This document shows, piece by piece, positions 1-4,851 of a DNA stretch of 10,061 nucleotides. Position 1 is the stretch's first letter. Each line of letters begins with the position of its first letter. This DNA comes from Clostridia bacterium (lineage in GTDB: Bacteria; Bacillota; Clostridia; CAKSNL01; HGM11501). Position numbers and translations under genes: made by a program. The stretch lies in NCBI GenBank assembly GCA_045545475.1, contig JAZQAZ010000013.1, positions 1 to 10,061 of the forward strand, read 5' to 3'. The notes below the pieces were generated by a model, which worked only from the letters and a program-made list of their open reading frames with translations, was not told the origin of the DNA and searched no databases.

Positions 1-299
1 TGAATGTGAGCAGAATCCTGAAGCATTATATTACAAAGCCTATGTGTTGCTTCTGTACAATACACGGGACCTGTGTATCCTTTTGCAACCATTGCCGGAA
101 TCTTTCCTGAATGGTCTATATGTGCATGAGTAAGGCAAATCCCATCAACCTCTGACGGAGCAACAGGCAATTCGCAGTTTTCATATGTATCGCCGCCTTG
201 TTCCATACCGCAGTCAATAAGGATATGCTTTCCACAAGCTACAAGCAAGGTACAAGAACCTGTAACCTCATGAGCTGCTCCTATAAATGTTAATTTCAT
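1..299 (-). CDS. MBL-fold metallo-hydrolase, beta-CASP/RNA-metabolising family (N-terminal part; runs off the left edge)
   Basis: Not in the ORF track. Manual translation from ATG at 299 gives MKLTFIGAAHEVTGSCTLLVACGKHILIDCGMEQGGD...ICLTHAHIDHSGKIP..., containing GAAxEVTGS, LIDCG and the HxHxDH metal-binding motif. GGAG RBS at ~309-317. Confidence 0.92.
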   Translation of the reverse strand, partial: MKLTFIGAAHEVTGSCTLLVACGKHILIDCGMEQGGDTYENCELPVAPSEVDGICLTHAHIDHSGKIPAMVAKGYTGPVYCTEATHRLCNIMLQDSAHI

Positions 300-305
300 A
301 TTCAC

Positions 306-479
306 TTACTCCTCTCCTAATATTTCTCTTCCTTCATCTTCGGTTATGTATTCAACCTCTACCATACATTCTATGACTTTTTTCTGTCGCTGTTTTGCAA
401 GGTCAAGTCTGTTGTTTAACGAATATGCTGACGGTGCGTTTGGTCCTCCAACAAGTAAAGTACACTCATAGTCCGTCAT
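306..479 (-). pseudogene. C-terminal remnant of a GT51 (monofunctional) peptidoglycan transglycosylase
   Basis: MTDYECTLLVGGPNAPSAYSLNNRLDLAKQRQKKVIECMVEVEYITEDE resembles the C-terminus of transglycosylase domains (ExxLLxGxPNAPSxY...LAxxRxxxVxxxM...YI). The N-terminal catalytic motifs are absent, and the in-frame upstream residues (to 548) overlap the HTH gene and look unrelated. Confidence 0.7.
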
Positions 480-507
480 ACCATTCCGCATTTTTTGCAT
501 ATGTATA

Positions 508-717
508 TCATACAAGTGTCTTATCTTTAACCTCAACAACATCTCCAATCTGACAGTTAAGAGCTTTACAAATCTTTATAAGAATGGTCAATGCTACTAT
601 CTCATTTTTATTAAGCTTTGTTAAAGTTGTTGAGGATATATCTGCAAGTTCCATTAGGTCATGCTTGCGAATATTCCTTTTCTTCAATGTTTCCCATAGT
701 CTTCGATATGTTACCAT
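508..717 (-). CDS. Cro/C1-type (XRE/HTH_26-like) helix-turn-helix transcriptional regulator, 69 aa
   Basis: MVTYRRLWETLKKRNIRKHDLMELADISSTTLTKLNKNEIVALTILIKICKALNCQIGDVVE fits the typical YxxLW...ISxxTLxKL...ICxALxCxIxD pattern. GGAGG RBS at 726-730, 8 nt from the ATG. Confidence 0.9.
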   Translation of the reverse strand: MVTYRRLWETLKKRNIRKHDLMELADISSTTLTKLNKNEIVALTILIKICKALNCQIGDVVEVKDKTLV

Positions 718-746
718 AGCATAAGCCTCCGAAAATTTATGTATTA

Positions 747-791
747 ATTATACACCTATCCAACAAAAAAATCAAGACTTCGCTTGATTTT
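747..791 (-). promoter_or_regulatory. Sigma-A promoter of the HTH gene with an overlapping inverted repeat (candidate operator)
   Basis: Minus strand TTGATT (775-770)-N17-TATAAT (752-747). The inverted repeat AAAATCAAG-N6-CTTGATTTT (768-791) overlaps the -35. Confidence 0.65.
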
Positions 792-838
792 AGTATATTG
801 CATTTCAGTTTACAATTGAGGCTATCTTGGCAACTCAA

Positions 839-866
839 GCGGGACGTCGGGGACGCCGTCCCCTAC
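839..866 (-). repeat. GTAG-type REP-like hairpin (copy a)
   Basis: Minus strand GTAG-GGGACG-G-CG-TCCC-CG-A-CGTCCC-GC: GTAG followed by an imperfect GC-rich palindrome. Confidence 0.75.
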
Positions 867-876
867 AAATTCTCAC

Positions 877-1000
877 AAAAAAAGACGGAACGCTTGTTTT
901 AAGGTAGCCTTGCAATTCACCCGAAGCGGTTTCCGAAACCCAATCTTTCGATTGTCGGAGGGCTTGCCTTTAAATGGTGGTCCCATACATTTGTTCCGTC
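877..1000 (-). ncRNA. Candidate stand-alone structured small RNA (~120 nt), family not recognised
   Basis: Perfect promoter directly upstream. The 5' end GACGGAAC (1000-993) pairs with the 3' end GUUCCGUC (891-884), followed by U7 (883-877). Internal helices include CAAUC-GAAA-GAUUG. No credible ORF or RBS inside. Confidence 0.7.
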
Positions 1001-1007
1001 AGATATA

Positions 1008-1036
1008 ATTATATAAAATATGTGTTATTTTGTCAA
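1008..1036 (-). promoter_or_regulatory. Consensus sigma-A promoter driving the candidate ncRNA
   Basis: Minus strand TTGACA (1036-1031)-N17-TATAAT (1013-1008). The predicted TSS at ~1001 coincides with the start of the terminal stem. Confidence 0.85.
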
Positions 1037-1070
1037 CTCCGTCCCCTGCAATTGCACCACTACAACACAA

Positions 1071-1096
1071 GCGGAATGCATAAATGCATTCCCTAC
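1071..1096 (-). repeat. GTAG-type REP-like hairpin (copy b)
   Basis: Minus strand GTAG-GGAATGCAT-TT-ATGCATTCC-GC. Positions 1072-1096 are identical to 9859-9883. Confidence 0.8.
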
Positions 1097-1116: not shown

Positions 1117-1141
1117 GTAGGGCGGGGATTTATCCCCGCCG
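1117..1141 (+). repeat. GTAG-type REP-like hairpin (copy c), inverted partner of copy b
   Basis: GTAG-GGCGGGGA-TTTA-TCCCCGCC-G, 20 nt from copy b in the opposite orientation. Confidence 0.78.
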
Positions 1142-1158
1142 GAATTCAACATCCCATC

Positions 1159-1190
1159 AAAAAAGCAGTCAACCTTCGTTGACTGCTTTT
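1159..1190 (-). terminator. Rho-independent terminator of the SLH-protein gene (possibly bidirectional)
   Basis: AAAAGCAGTCAAC-CTTC-GTTGACTGCTTTT hairpin with A/T tracts, 8 nt downstream of the stop at 1199. Confidence 0.88.
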
Positions 1191-1198
1191 ATATTATC

Positions 1199-4100
1199 TT
1201 ACTTATTTCCCTCGATGAATCTGTGAAGGATTGCCGCAGTTTCTGCTCTTGTGGCATTCTCTTCGGGAGCAATGTTATTTTCGCCCTTTCCTTTGAAAAG
1301 ACCTGAATTTACCGTCCATGCCATGGCAGTCAATGCATATTCAGAGATTTCTTCATAGTCATTAAATTCACGAATAAGCATTCCGCCCTGAGTCACGTCA
1401 TAACCCTTATATTCAGCGAACCTATGCATAATGGTTGCTATCTGTTCACGGGTAATATTGGAATCGGGTGCAAACTCTGTATCACTTACGCCCTTTACTA
1501 TTCCAACCTGCTTTGCCCAGGAAACCGCATCTGCATAGTATGCACCCATATCAACATCCGAGAATGGGATTGATTTATTTACCGCAGGCTCGCCCTCAAG
1601 TCTGTAAAGAACGGTAACGAGCATTGCTCGTGTGAGTGATGCCTCGGGAGCAAATTCAGTTTCCGATATACCCTTCATAATGCCATTTTCATACACATAG
1701 TCAATGTCTTCCGTTGCCCAGTGGCCGAAGGGATGAACATCTGTAAATTCCTTCTTTGCCGATGTCTGACCGCTATCTTCGCCCGATGCAGGCGTTACCG
1801 GCAATGTGGGTGTACCTGTAGGTATTTTTATACCTCCGGATGAAGACGAACCCTTGCTGCTTCCTCCGCCACTGCCTCCGGATGACTGCTTTACAATTTC
1901 AACCTCTTTTGCTCCTTCGCCTTTTTTACCGACTGCCACGCCCTCAGCGAAGTAATCTGGGCCTGCAAACATAACATCAATAATCTTTGCATTTTTCGGA
2001 ACTTTAATTTCCAGCTCCTTGTTAATATCTATATCTTTGAGCGCAAAGAGTGCGTAGCCTTCCGTAACCGTAGCATTAACCTCTCCGCCATCAATACAGA
2101 TAGTTCCTTTGCTGTTTATAATGTCTGCCGCTTCAATACCGTTTATAGCAGCGGTGATGTCAAGAGTTCCGTCTTTCATTTCAAACTCATCCAAAACCCT
2201 GATACCTTCGCTTGTTTCACTTACAAGCGTTATTTTTCCGCCTTTGATATACACACTGTAAGCATCTATGGGCATATCATAAGCTGTTACATTTATTGTG
2301 CCGCCTGTGATTTTTATATGTTTCTCAACGTCAAAGCCTTCGTCGCCTGCATTTATTGTTATCTTGCCGCCTGTAATGGTGACATTTCCGCCGTCGGGAC
2401 TATCTGCACTTGCACTGATATCCATACCATGATCATCGGTGGTGATATTAATTGTGCCGCCCTTTATATAAAGATTTCCGCCGTCAACATCAATACCGTC
2501 ATCGTCTTTTGTCTCTAAAGTAAGTGTGCCGCTCTTTATTGTAACGTCACCCTCGTATATGTTAATTGCATCGTCGCCTGCAATTAATGTAAGAGAGCCT
2601 TTTCCGCTTACTGTAATATCCACGCCGTATGTCCAGATACAGTCGGATTCTTCCAGGGTAGTTTCTATTTTGCTTTCACCGGTAATTACAATATCAAGAT
2701 CATCTTCTGTATAAATTAATGCATTTCCGTAATGGTACTCGTCATATTCATAGTCATAGCCCAGACCCTTAAATTCAAAATCCTTCAAGGAGAGAGTGCC
2801 TTCATTATAATATGCATAGCCGCCTCTTGGCTTTTCATAGGATAATGCACCGCCTGTGCTTAAGTATTCGCCGTTTGCAAGGCCAACACCGCCGATATAA
2901 ATTTCAGCTTCCTTATTTACATCGTATCCGCAGATGCATTCGCCATCTTCGCTGTGAGGCTCATATCCCTCGCAAGCGTCAGGATAATCGTTTATTATGC
3001 AACCCTTCGTGCAAGAATTCCAGTGGTGTGTGGAATTAACCCTGTATTCTTCGCTCCAGTTATGCTCACATACCGGTGCAAGAAGAGCATATTTTACAGG
3101 ATTTCCTTCGCCGTCACGGATTTCGTGGGGGAGTCCTTCTGCTCTTATAATTTCTCCGTCCGAAGGAAGAATAAGCTCAAGGTCTTCGGAAATTGAAACA
3201 TCCATAGCCTCCATAAGTGCATCCCATGTTTCAAGTTCAATTGTTCCGCCACTTAAAATGACTTCGTATGACCAGATAGCTACGCCTTCAGCAAAAACAT
3301 CCACTTTGCCGCCTGTAATTTCAACGGTTTCGTCAGCTGTGATACCGCAAACGCAATTTAGATAAATTTCGCCGCCCTCTATATAGACATTGCCTTCTCC
3401 CGACATAATAGCATCAAAGGCTACAAGGTCAAGCTTACCGCCCTTAACCCTTATATCTCCATCGGCATATATCGCACCATCTTCTGCCTCCACATAAATG
3501 GTGCCGTCACCGCTTATTGTAAGCTCTGCGGCGGATTCACTAATAATGCCGCCCTTTACGTCATCTCCCCCATAATAATAGTCGCTTACAATCTTATTTG
3601 TTCCCTCAAGCACTATACCAAGCGGGCTGTTTGCATATATGAGTGCATAGCTTTCCACGCCATCTTCCTCGTTTGTATGGAAATGATAACCATCGCCTTC
3701 GTAGCTGTAATCATTTAAGGTAAGGGTACCGTCTTTATAATATGCATAGCCGCCGGAAGGCTTTTTCTTTGCGGTTTCAGAAGCGCCGGATGCAAGATAG
3801 GTGCCGTCTTCCATTCCTGTACCGCCGACAAATACATCATAAACCTTTTTAAATGTTGCCGTTACAGTAACATCAGCTTCAGGCATTGTAAATTTGTTTT
3901 CATTTATTTCAACATCTTCTGAATCAGAGTCCTCAACGCTTAAAGTGTCAAGCTCATAGCCTGTCGCAGGCGTAACAGTCAGAGTTACTGTTTCGCCCTT
4001 GCGAGCTTCCGAAACATCCGCTTCGACCGTGCCGTTTATTGTTTCTTCGATTGTAACCTTGTAGCCCGGCTCAAATTTAAGGAGTATGGCGTTGTTTCCG

Positions 4101-4822
4101 TATTCATCTGTGGCAGTATTGCCGCTGCAGTCAACCCATCCGTCTACGTCGATTGTAAATTTCTCATCCTCCGGAAGCACATATCCCACAGGAGCATCTG
4201 CCACATGAAGGGTGAATTCCACGCCGGTGGGAATACCGCTAAGTTCATGACTTTCGCTTGTCATATCCAATGAGCTGACACTTGATCCTTCTGAATTTAA
4301 GAAGCAAATTGTCACTTTGTCTGATTCATCGTCAAATACAACGCCTTCTGTCATTATGACAAGTTTTGTCTTATCAAACCCAACAAGTATTGTTCCCTCT
4401 TCATCAACCATACCTGTTGAAATCATCTTTCCGTCATCATAAAAGGAGAAGGTCCTATCGGAAGAAAGAATAAACCCTTTGGGTGCTGTAATTACGCGAA
4501 CGGTGTATTCGTTACCTGCTGCAAGACCTTCTATGGTGTGTATTTCTTCTGTCGATGTCCACTCGTCTACTACTCTGTCCTCGGAATTAAGCAACTGCAT
4601 TTTTGCACCGGCAAGTCCTTCTCCGTTTGTATAACTAACCGTATGAATGTCAGCACTGAATGTAGGAGCACTTATTTCTTCCGCCATAAGCTCAACTTCG
4701 TCAACTTCCGTTATTTCGAAAAAGTCCGTTGCACCTGCCCCTATGGTAAAGCCTGGGATAAGCGTTATAAGCATCGCCAATGTAAGCATCCACGCCGTTA
4801 ATTTCCTTAAGTCTTTTTTCAT
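1199..4822 (-). CDS. Large secreted S-layer homology (SLH) domain protein, 1207 aa: signal peptide, 2 SpaA/Cna-B-like Ig folds, bacterial repeat domain, 2 beta-helix (Cthe_2159-like carbohydrate-binding) modules, Cys/His linker, Gly/Ser linker, 3 SLH
   Basis: Signal peptide MKKDLRKLTAWMLTLAMLITLIPG. LAGAKMQLLN...VVDEWTS...YTVRVITAPKGF is SpaA-like. GETVTLTVTPATGYELDTLSV...FTMPEADVTVTATF is a repeat domain. Many ITGGKI/IKGGTI beta-helix rungs follow. C-terminal FTDV..HWA...F.P...LTRA / ITREQ / ATRAE SLH motifs. Start moved from 4828 to ATG 4822 because of the GAAAGGA RBS at 4832-4838. Confidence 0.9.
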   Translation of the reverse strand: MKKDLRKLTAWMLTLAMLITLIPGFTIGAGATDFFEITEVDEVELMAEEISAPTFSADIHTVSYTNGEGLAGAKMQLLNSEDRVVDEWTSTEEIHTIEGLAAGNEYTVRVITAPKGFILSSDRTFSFYDDGKMISTGMVDEEGTILVGFDKTKLVIMTEGVVFDDESDKVTICFLNSEGSSVSSLDMTSESHELSGIPTGVEFTLHVADAPVGYVLPEDEKFTIDVDGWVDCSGNTATDEYGNNAILLKFEPGYKVTIEETINGTVEADVSEARKGETVTLTVTPATGYELDTLSVEDSDSEDVEINENKFTMPEADVTVTATFKKVYDVFVGGTGMEDGTYLASGASETAKKKPSGGYAYYKDGTLTLNDYSYEGDGYHFHTNEEDGVESYALIYANSPLGIVLEGTNKIVSDYYYGGDDVKGGIISESAAELTISGDGTIYVEAEDGAIYADGDIRVKGGKLDLVAFDAIMSGEGNVYIEGGEIYLNCVCGITADETVEITGGKVDVFAEGVAIWSYEVILSGGTIELETWDALMEAMDVSISEDLELILPSDGEIIRAEGLPHEIRDGEGNPVKYALLAPVCEHNWSEEYRVNSTHHWNSCTKGCIINDYPDACEGYEPHSEDGECICGYDVNKEAEIYIGGVGLANGEYLSTGGALSYEKPRGGYAYYNEGTLSLKDFEFKGLGYDYEYDEYHYGNALIYTEDDLDIVITGESKIETTLEESDCIWTYGVDITVSGKGSLTLIAGDDAINIYEGDVTIKSGTLTLETKDDDGIDVDGGNLYIKGGTINITTDDHGMDISASADSPDGGNVTITGGKITINAGDEGFDVEKHIKITGGTINVTAYDMPIDAYSVYIKGGKITLVSETSEGIRVLDEFEMKDGTLDITAAINGIEAADIINSKGTICIDGGEVNATVTEGYALFALKDIDINKELEIKVPKNAKIIDVMFAGPDYFAEGVAVGKKGEGAKEVEIVKQSSGGSGGGSSKGSSSSGGIKIPTGTPTLPVTPASGEDSGQTSAKKEFTDVHPFGHWATEDIDYVYENGIMKGISETEFAPEASLTRAMLVTVLYRLEGEPAVNKSIPFSDVDMGAYYADAVSWAKQVGIVKGVSDTEFAPDSNITREQIATIMHRFAEYKGYDVTQGGMLIREFNDYEEISEYALTAMAWTVNSGLFKGKGENNIAPEENATRAETAAILHRFIEGNK

Positions 4823-4851
4823 AAACAACCGTCCTTTCTTAAATGCATTTA

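Follow-up and report, generated by a model that had tools for sequence, protein, structure and literature searches.

We identified a 170-nt segment (1038..869) that carries a consensus promoter, a candidate RNA of 117-124 nt, a T-run and a further 8 nt, and that is absent from the syntenic site of three congeneric species. We tentatively read it as a young small-RNA transcription unit that is specific to this strain and was gained through rearrangement at a REP hairpin, and put the chance of this reading somewhat below even. The window, i.e. the whole stretch of DNA analysed, comprises 10,061 nt of a Clostridia genome (contig JAZQAZ010000013.1 of assembly GCA_045545475.1; hereafter G000, 2.74 Mb, 41% G+C). 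The gene call draws solely on transcription signals, and the locus is presented as a candidate, not as a finding.

Promoter and predicted transcription start

The promoter TTGACA-N17-TATAAT lies at 1036..1008 on the minus strand (-35 hexamer TTGACA, 1031..1036; -10 hexamer TATAAT, 1008..1013; 17-nt spacer) and was recovered by promoter scan as well as by direct reading. With a 12/12 consensus match, it is the perfect minus-strand promoter that the preliminary description of this DNA had reported, and it provides the candidate with a promoter of its own, a generic criterion for small-RNA genes. Judged from the spacing after the -10 hexamer, transcription would start at about 1001/1000; the sequence GACGGAAC (1000-993) begins 7 bases past the hexamer.

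A perfect promoter is commonplace in G000, not unusual. There are 130 perfect TTGACA-N16-18-TATAAT sites, compared with about 3.5 predicted from base composition by our own arithmetic (a roughly 37-fold excess), and many of them precede tRNA genes or a ribosome binding site (RBS) with start codon. Because such sites are over-represented and often stand ahead of tRNA genes or an RBS, the promoter at 1036..1008 is probably, perhaps very probably, functional. Given these 130 sites, a perfect promoter alone is therefore a weak argument for similar finds, and a perfect -35/-10 pair by itself should not raise their rating in this genome.

Closing stem and T-run

The 124-nt stretch 1000..877 (minus strand) reads as it had been quoted before. 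Its 5' end (GACGGAAC, 993..1000) is perfectly complementary to GUUCCGUC (884..891), and a T7 run (877..883), the putative termination point, abuts this 8-bp stem immediately 3'. The terminal stem followed by U7 of the preliminary description is thus present, with computed pair probabilities of 0.97-1.0. The 5' arm has no partner in the predicted fold of the 109-nt nascent RNA. Unlike a canonical intrinsic terminator, the stem encloses a branched loop of 101 nt; it was not listed by the terminator scan, and its pair probability is at least 0.97.

The agreement of predicted start, structure edge and U-tract, also pointed out earlier, was evaluated by counting 8-mers located 0-2 nt before a run of at least six T whose perfect reverse complement occurs 20-300 nt upstream. 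G000 contains 223 such stem and T-run events in 5.48 million strand positions, which corresponds to an expectation of 2.8e-4 per promoter (7-nt start window) and 0.037 across the 130 promoters. Two cases of promoter, stem and T-run were seen in G000, the candidate and one on contig C25, and the coincidence at the candidate is unlikely to be chance.

The second case (G000:C25:15355-15470, plus strand; about 1056-1170 of L065) has a perfect promoter directly before a unit of about 70 nt, composed of a hairpin with an approximately 13-bp stem and a T7 run. It is located antisense within an ORF of more than 821 aa, has no Rfam match at E<=1, and could be an antisense RNA or chance. Because this case sits antisense in a long ORF, a coincidence of promoter, stem and T-run need not mark a gene.

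Interior fold

The ViennaRNA minimum free energy (MFE) structure of the 124 nt (-36 kcal/mol) is a branched junction with no central bubble, and its helices inside the closing stem are identical to those proposed in the preliminary description. The 101-nt interior (892..992, minus strand) without the closing stem has a z of -0.53, with 59 of 200 shuffles folding as well or better, and the 109-nt nascent RNA a z of -0.02 (91 of 200). Inclusion of the stem brings z to -2.09 for the 124 nt (7 of 200) and to -2.25 for the 117-nt core (24 of 1000); in windows shifted by 20 nt, z is about 0 to +1 and the signal is gone. Because interior and nascent RNA are at shuffle level, the whole structure signal is the 8-bp end-to-end stem, and any sequence of like composition would yield helices such as the GNRA hairpin and the rest. 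The label of a structured RNA does not survive these comparisons, in which the stem alone beats shuffles. G+C content rises from 20% in the promoter to 49% in the RNA core; the neighbouring spacer has 31%.

Known RNA families and coding potential

Rfam 15 at gathering scores yielded no family match across the window, and at E<=10 the region 700-1250 had unrelated sub-threshold matches only, the best being snR13 over the promoter (24.8 bits, cut-off 47). Positions 870-1005 alone (136 nt) had no match at E<=10, riboswitches and leaders included; the preliminary description had not assigned a family either. The c-di-GMP-I riboswitch (RF01051) and other Rfam cis-regulators were likewise rejected, with no covariance-model match at E<=10, and ARAGORN detected no tRNA or tmRNA in the window.

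6S RNA is about 180 nt long and imitates an open promoter by means of a large central bubble. A loose resemblance to it had been proposed for the candidate, which has 117-124 nt and a branched junction and is without a match to RF00013 at gathering score or at E<=10. The true 6S RNA gene of G000 was located at C15:112625-112807 (95.1 bits), and we abandoned the comparison as an assignment. An RNA antitoxin had been named as another option. Type I antitoxins have a small toxin ORF beside or overlapping them, and type III antitoxins consist of tandem repeats accompanied by a toxin gene. Among the ORFs of at least 20 aa on both strands of 720-1200 there was no hydrophobic peptide and no Pfam match, and the antitoxin option found no support; a tandem repeat was not seen on reading the stretch by eye. 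Retron msr/msd RNAs, which have end-to-end inverted repeats and adjoin a reverse-transcriptase gene, were rejected as well: the ten window ORFs scanned (HTH, MBL, SLH, TetR and others) include no reverse transcriptase.

The earlier statement that the stretch has no credible ORF was nearly right, yet a 37-codon ATG frame exists at 986..873 on the minus strand. We saw no GGAGG-like RBS in the 14 nt ahead of its start codon, the frame does not reach a stop until past the T7 run, and Pfam gave no match for it at E<=1. Peptides encoded by the three small ORFs overlapping the candidate have no exact counterpart among about 15 billion predicted proteins.

Search for relatives

The candidate is single copy in G000. 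When the 124 nt were compared by BLAST with 60 relatives (11 of them congeners), no match exceeded 46 nt in length, and the best non-self match (26 nt) had E 0.0105. Positions 870-1040 had no match in 13 other genomes of the order. At the level of the class, 10 of 399 scored genomes (one further genome was left unscored) had matches at E<=0.001, all of 35 nt or less, of which seven covered the promoter only, one the -10 hexamer and first RNA bases, and two a coding region. Two 31-nt class matches of 87% identity, in an open frame with what we take to be a TsaC/Sua5-like motif, were treated as chance; G000 has no second copy.

A covariance model built from the single candidate sequence and its MFE structure had no match at E<=1 in 100 relatives and one match (E 0.049, 23.6 bits) in a partly overlapping set of 149 class genomes. 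This match is inside a 478-aa ORF and is without promoter or T-run. Comparison by blastn with 50,697 phage and 72,556 plasmid records gave no match, and exact-word scans of viral contigs and of GTDB genome contigs gave none either. Two loci in a 20-mer scan of JGI metagenomes matched over 20 and 26 nt only and were dismissed as chance. The segment is known from this genome only, among collections that may omit records very near it and thus leave strains of the same species unsampled. The preliminary description had called for homologues with covarying stems; no homologue turned up wherever we searched, and there is therefore neither conservation nor covariation.

RNA libraries and target ranking

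A search of RNA libraries returned three metatranscriptome runs of one study, with 0.09-0.15 of the sampled words. On positions 500-1400, their contigs cover the HTH block (500-819, with 10 differences, followed by unlike sequence), the REP hairpins (836-870 and 1072-1103) and bits of the SLH gene. No contig piece lies over 875-1057, and the contigs represent related strains or multi-copy repeats, so they are no evidence either way. Contigs from many unrelated contexts in these libraries contain the REP of the type found at 866-840.

A crude duplex ranking against 2953 self-called start regions placed the neighbouring HTH gene 831st, with energies that look unrealistic, and was uninformative. 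On visual inspection, 11 nt of the RNA can pair with the RBS of the HTH gene (5+5 bp with a one-base bulge), at a rough chance of about 0.02.

REP hairpins and the 170-nt indel

The GTAGGG hairpins around the candidate belong to the REP elements: in G000, GTAGGG precedes a 6-9-bp palindrome at 23 places, with loops that are mostly TTTA or CTTG and with compensatory differences that give four or more stem variants. The window contains one copy of the GTAGGGGACGG... type at 840..866 (minus strand; further copies on C33, n = 2, and C47), one with an 8-bp stem and TTTA loop at 1072..1096 (minus strand), one in opposite orientation at 1117..1141 (plus strand), and a fourth at about 9883-9859 (minus strand). 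Two of these, 1117-1141 and 1096-1072, are arranged head to head as a pair. Alongside the GTAG head, the compensatory palindrome and the many copies, G000 has the Y1 transposase that goes with REP elements: its only Y1_Tnp (IS200/RAYT-like) ORF is located at C30:129615-130124 (L064 1357-1866, plus strand), encodes 169 aa and scores 28.7 bits (cut-off 23). Two REP copies in opposite orientations, about 60 nt apart, lie in frame within this Y1_Tnp coding sequence. PMC3733652 uses the GTAG tag to define a REP superfamily and reports that REPs serve as insertion targets and that DNA is inserted between dimer partners.

In the three congeneric species G002, G003 and G010, the flanks are kept and 1038..869 is missing. 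Over the 3' part of the SLH gene and the adjoining flank, G000 and these genomes are 89-90% identical, and identity extends to window position 1039 in G002, 1063 in G010 and 1125 in G003; the G010 contig ends 12 nt past the equivalent of 1063. The next recognisable piece in G002 and G003 is the repeat that G000 has at 868-822. In G010, a REP tail joins directly to the motif GTTGCCAAAGATG, which in G000 follows the REP at 866..840.

The segment is flanked by a 13-nt direct repeat. Its left copy, TTGCAGGGGACGG (1051..1039, minus strand), is a truncated, bare REP head, whose homologue in G002 heads a full hairpin repeat at the equivalent position, and the right copy, TTGTAGGGGACGG (856..868, minus strand), is the start of a complete REP. 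With a bare REP head on one side and a complete REP on the other, the flanking repeats are the footprint of insertion into, or recombination at, that repeat. A deletion in the other species would not leave such repeats.

At the same site, G002 and G003 each have two tandem copies of a unit of about 150 nt, which consists of a REP hairpin, a conserved GTTGCCAAGATAG... tail and two more hairpins (contig coordinates about 939-1235 of L041, G002:C13, and about 3171-3470 of L043, G003:C395). Partial copies of this unit occur elsewhere in both genomes, and a tRNA gene is near the tandem units in G003. Homology of the candidate to these units is not shown: they have one 11-mer in common, and shuffles score as well as the candidate in 14 of 500 cases for unit 1 and in 484 of 500 for unit 2.

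Neighbouring genes

The upstream gene (4828..1199, minus strand) encodes a 1209-aa SLH/Cthe_2159 surface protein, and the terminator scan placed its terminator hairpin at 1161..1190. Downstream, positions 1..821 form a block of an MBL-fold fragment, an 80-aa ORF and an HTH_26 gene (717..508, minus strand; Pfam E 6e-18). Variants of the HTH protein (a 90%-identity cluster with 67 members) are found on up to 91 public contigs. The 80-aa ORF (306-548, minus strand) has a sub-threshold C-terminal Transgly match (20.9 bits, cut-off 27) and may be a gene fragment. Aligned over 822 columns, the block shows 96.0% identity to contig C24 (L033 992-1812) of G009, which belongs to a different species of the genus. 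Homology ends at 821/822; sequence upstream of the HTH gene in G009 is unrelated and holds no such RNA. The block is shared with G009 at 96%, while the SLH-gene flanks differ far more, which suggests that it may have been shared laterally in recent time.

The HTH gene has its own promoter, TTGATT-17-TATAAT (747..775, minus strand), whose hexamers and spacer length are the same in G009. At 10/12, it confirms the separate HTH promoter that had been noted before. A second barrier to read-through, a small A/U-rich hairpin with a T-run, was read by eye at 765..788 (minus strand) and is not listed by the terminator scan, which needs three G-C pairs. The 3' arm and T-run of this hairpin contain the -35 hexamer of the HTH promoter and lie within the block shared with G009; the hairpin could insulate the HTH gene from upstream transcription. 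A 26-nt motif at 795-820 has a single copy in G000; in G009, two copies spaced 81 nt apart precede the HTH promoter. It could be an operator-like repeat. With an HTH promoter of its own, a separate history of the block, and a hairpin and T-run in between, the independence from the HTH gene claimed in the preliminary description is upheld.

Proposed origin and alternative explanations

An independent RNA unit is plausible at this locus. In the proposed mechanism, a sigma-A-type consensus promoter would start transcription at about 1001/1000, and the first 8 nt would stay free while the interior is synthesized. This 5' arm would pair with the last 8 nt (891-884) as they emerge, whereupon the U7 run would release an RNA of 117-124 nt with both ends in one stem, and the end-locking stem should shield the ends from exonucleases. 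We infer that the promoter fires, that the branched stem and T7 terminate transcription, and that the RNA is stable; that this putative RNA acts in trans by base pairing is a guess. The 170-nt unit (1038..869) would have arrived via rearrangement at a REP hairpin, leaving the 13-nt REP-head direct repeats. A bolder version, which we consider very unlikely, takes the unit as a portable promoter-RNA-terminator cassette that inserts into REP hairpins, duplicates the REP head and was caught before spreading; its movement might perhaps proceed through REP/RAYT single-strand DNA machinery.

Almost as likely as our preferred reading, and itself a distinct if lesser possibility, is that the segment is a functionless, promoter-bearing scar, a 170-nt fragment left by REP-mediated or illegitimate recombination, whose promoter may fire without the RNA having a role and whose 8-bp repeat would be fortuitous or a relic of the setting from which the fragment came. 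A single copy, the lack of relatives in any collection searched and absence from three congeners at the same site are what such a fragment would show, as are its position between three REP hairpins, 48 nt from the 821/822 junction with the laterally shared block, the chance-level interior fold and the reports of REPs as insertion targets (PMC3733652). It accounts poorly for a full-consensus promoter, for the sharp rise in G+C within the RNA and for a coincidence of start, stem and T-run that is expected 0.037 times over 130 perfect promoters. The small RNA of our preferred reading could alternatively be the leader or attenuator, with upstream promoter, of an HTH-MBL operon, in which some transcripts pass T7 into the HTH gene. 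This seems rather unlikely. The HTH gene is on the same strand, 283 nt downstream, a branched stem with T7 may terminate poorly, and the 283-nt read-through RNA folds with z -2.15, other pairings replacing the closing stem; however, the HTH block is homologous to G009 only up to 821, which means that the RNA and the HTH gene have not evolved together, and no riboswitch or leader family of Rfam matches. Because the REP hairpin, the second hairpin with its T-run, the promoter retained by the HTH gene and the separate history of the block all stand against it, read-through into that gene is an unlikely purpose.

The bracketing of 101 nt by an inverted repeat, within an indel that is itself flanked by direct repeats, would also suit a MITE-like miniature DNA transposon with the 8-bp repeat as terminal inverted repeats. 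We regard this as highly improbable, since the inverted repeat is internal, at 38 nt and 15 nt from the ends of the indel, the element has one copy in G000 and none in the other genomes searched, and a 13-nt direct repeat that is a REP head fits REP recombination better than target-site duplication. Least probable is a small-protein gene, in which the 37-codon frame would encode a very basic peptide: the frame is open and begins with ATG, but it is without a GGAGG-like RBS in the 14 nt before that codon, its stop after T7 would leave the terminated RNA stopless, and it has neither a Pfam match at E<=1 nor an identical entry among the predicted proteins searched.

As it stands, the small-RNA candidate is one orphan locus with good transcription signals and without conservation, and not a discovery. 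If the RNA is made and functional, the locus would show a small-RNA gene of very recent origin in the act of being gained, at a rearrangement hot spot rich in REPs in an uncultured gut lineage of Clostridia, and would be a concrete example of how a regulatory RNA gene originates or moves.

Comparison with known systems

The candidate resembles 6S RNA (RF00013) in the pairing of its 5' and 3' ends in a closing stem and in its internal loops, and differs from it in length (117-124 nt, compared with the 187 positions of the model) and in the lack of a match at E<=10. The Correia elements of Neisseria are MITEs that carry promoters and terminators and have long terminal inverted repeats and many copies. 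Like them, the segment is a small insert that is non-coding, supplies transcription signals and is able to fold from end to end; unlike them, it has an internal 8-bp repeat and one copy. REP, BIME and REPIN elements with their RAYT (TnpA-REP) transposases are represented in its flanks, which are GTAG-headed palindromes, one of them interrupted by the segment, whereas the candidate itself has no GTAG head, is single copy and bears a promoter.

Bacterial small RNAs that are strain-specific and have their own promoter and U-tract terminator form a general class found in variable or mobile regions. With them the candidate shares a consensus promoter, a length of about 120 nt, the lack of an ORF, a stem with U-run, an intergenic location and restriction to a single lineage. 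In contrast to members of this class, its putative terminator stem closes the whole molecule in place of a local hairpin, and it is known from sequence alone, with neither homologue nor predicted target. The candidate is at most a new orphan member of this ordinary class of strain-specific small RNAs.
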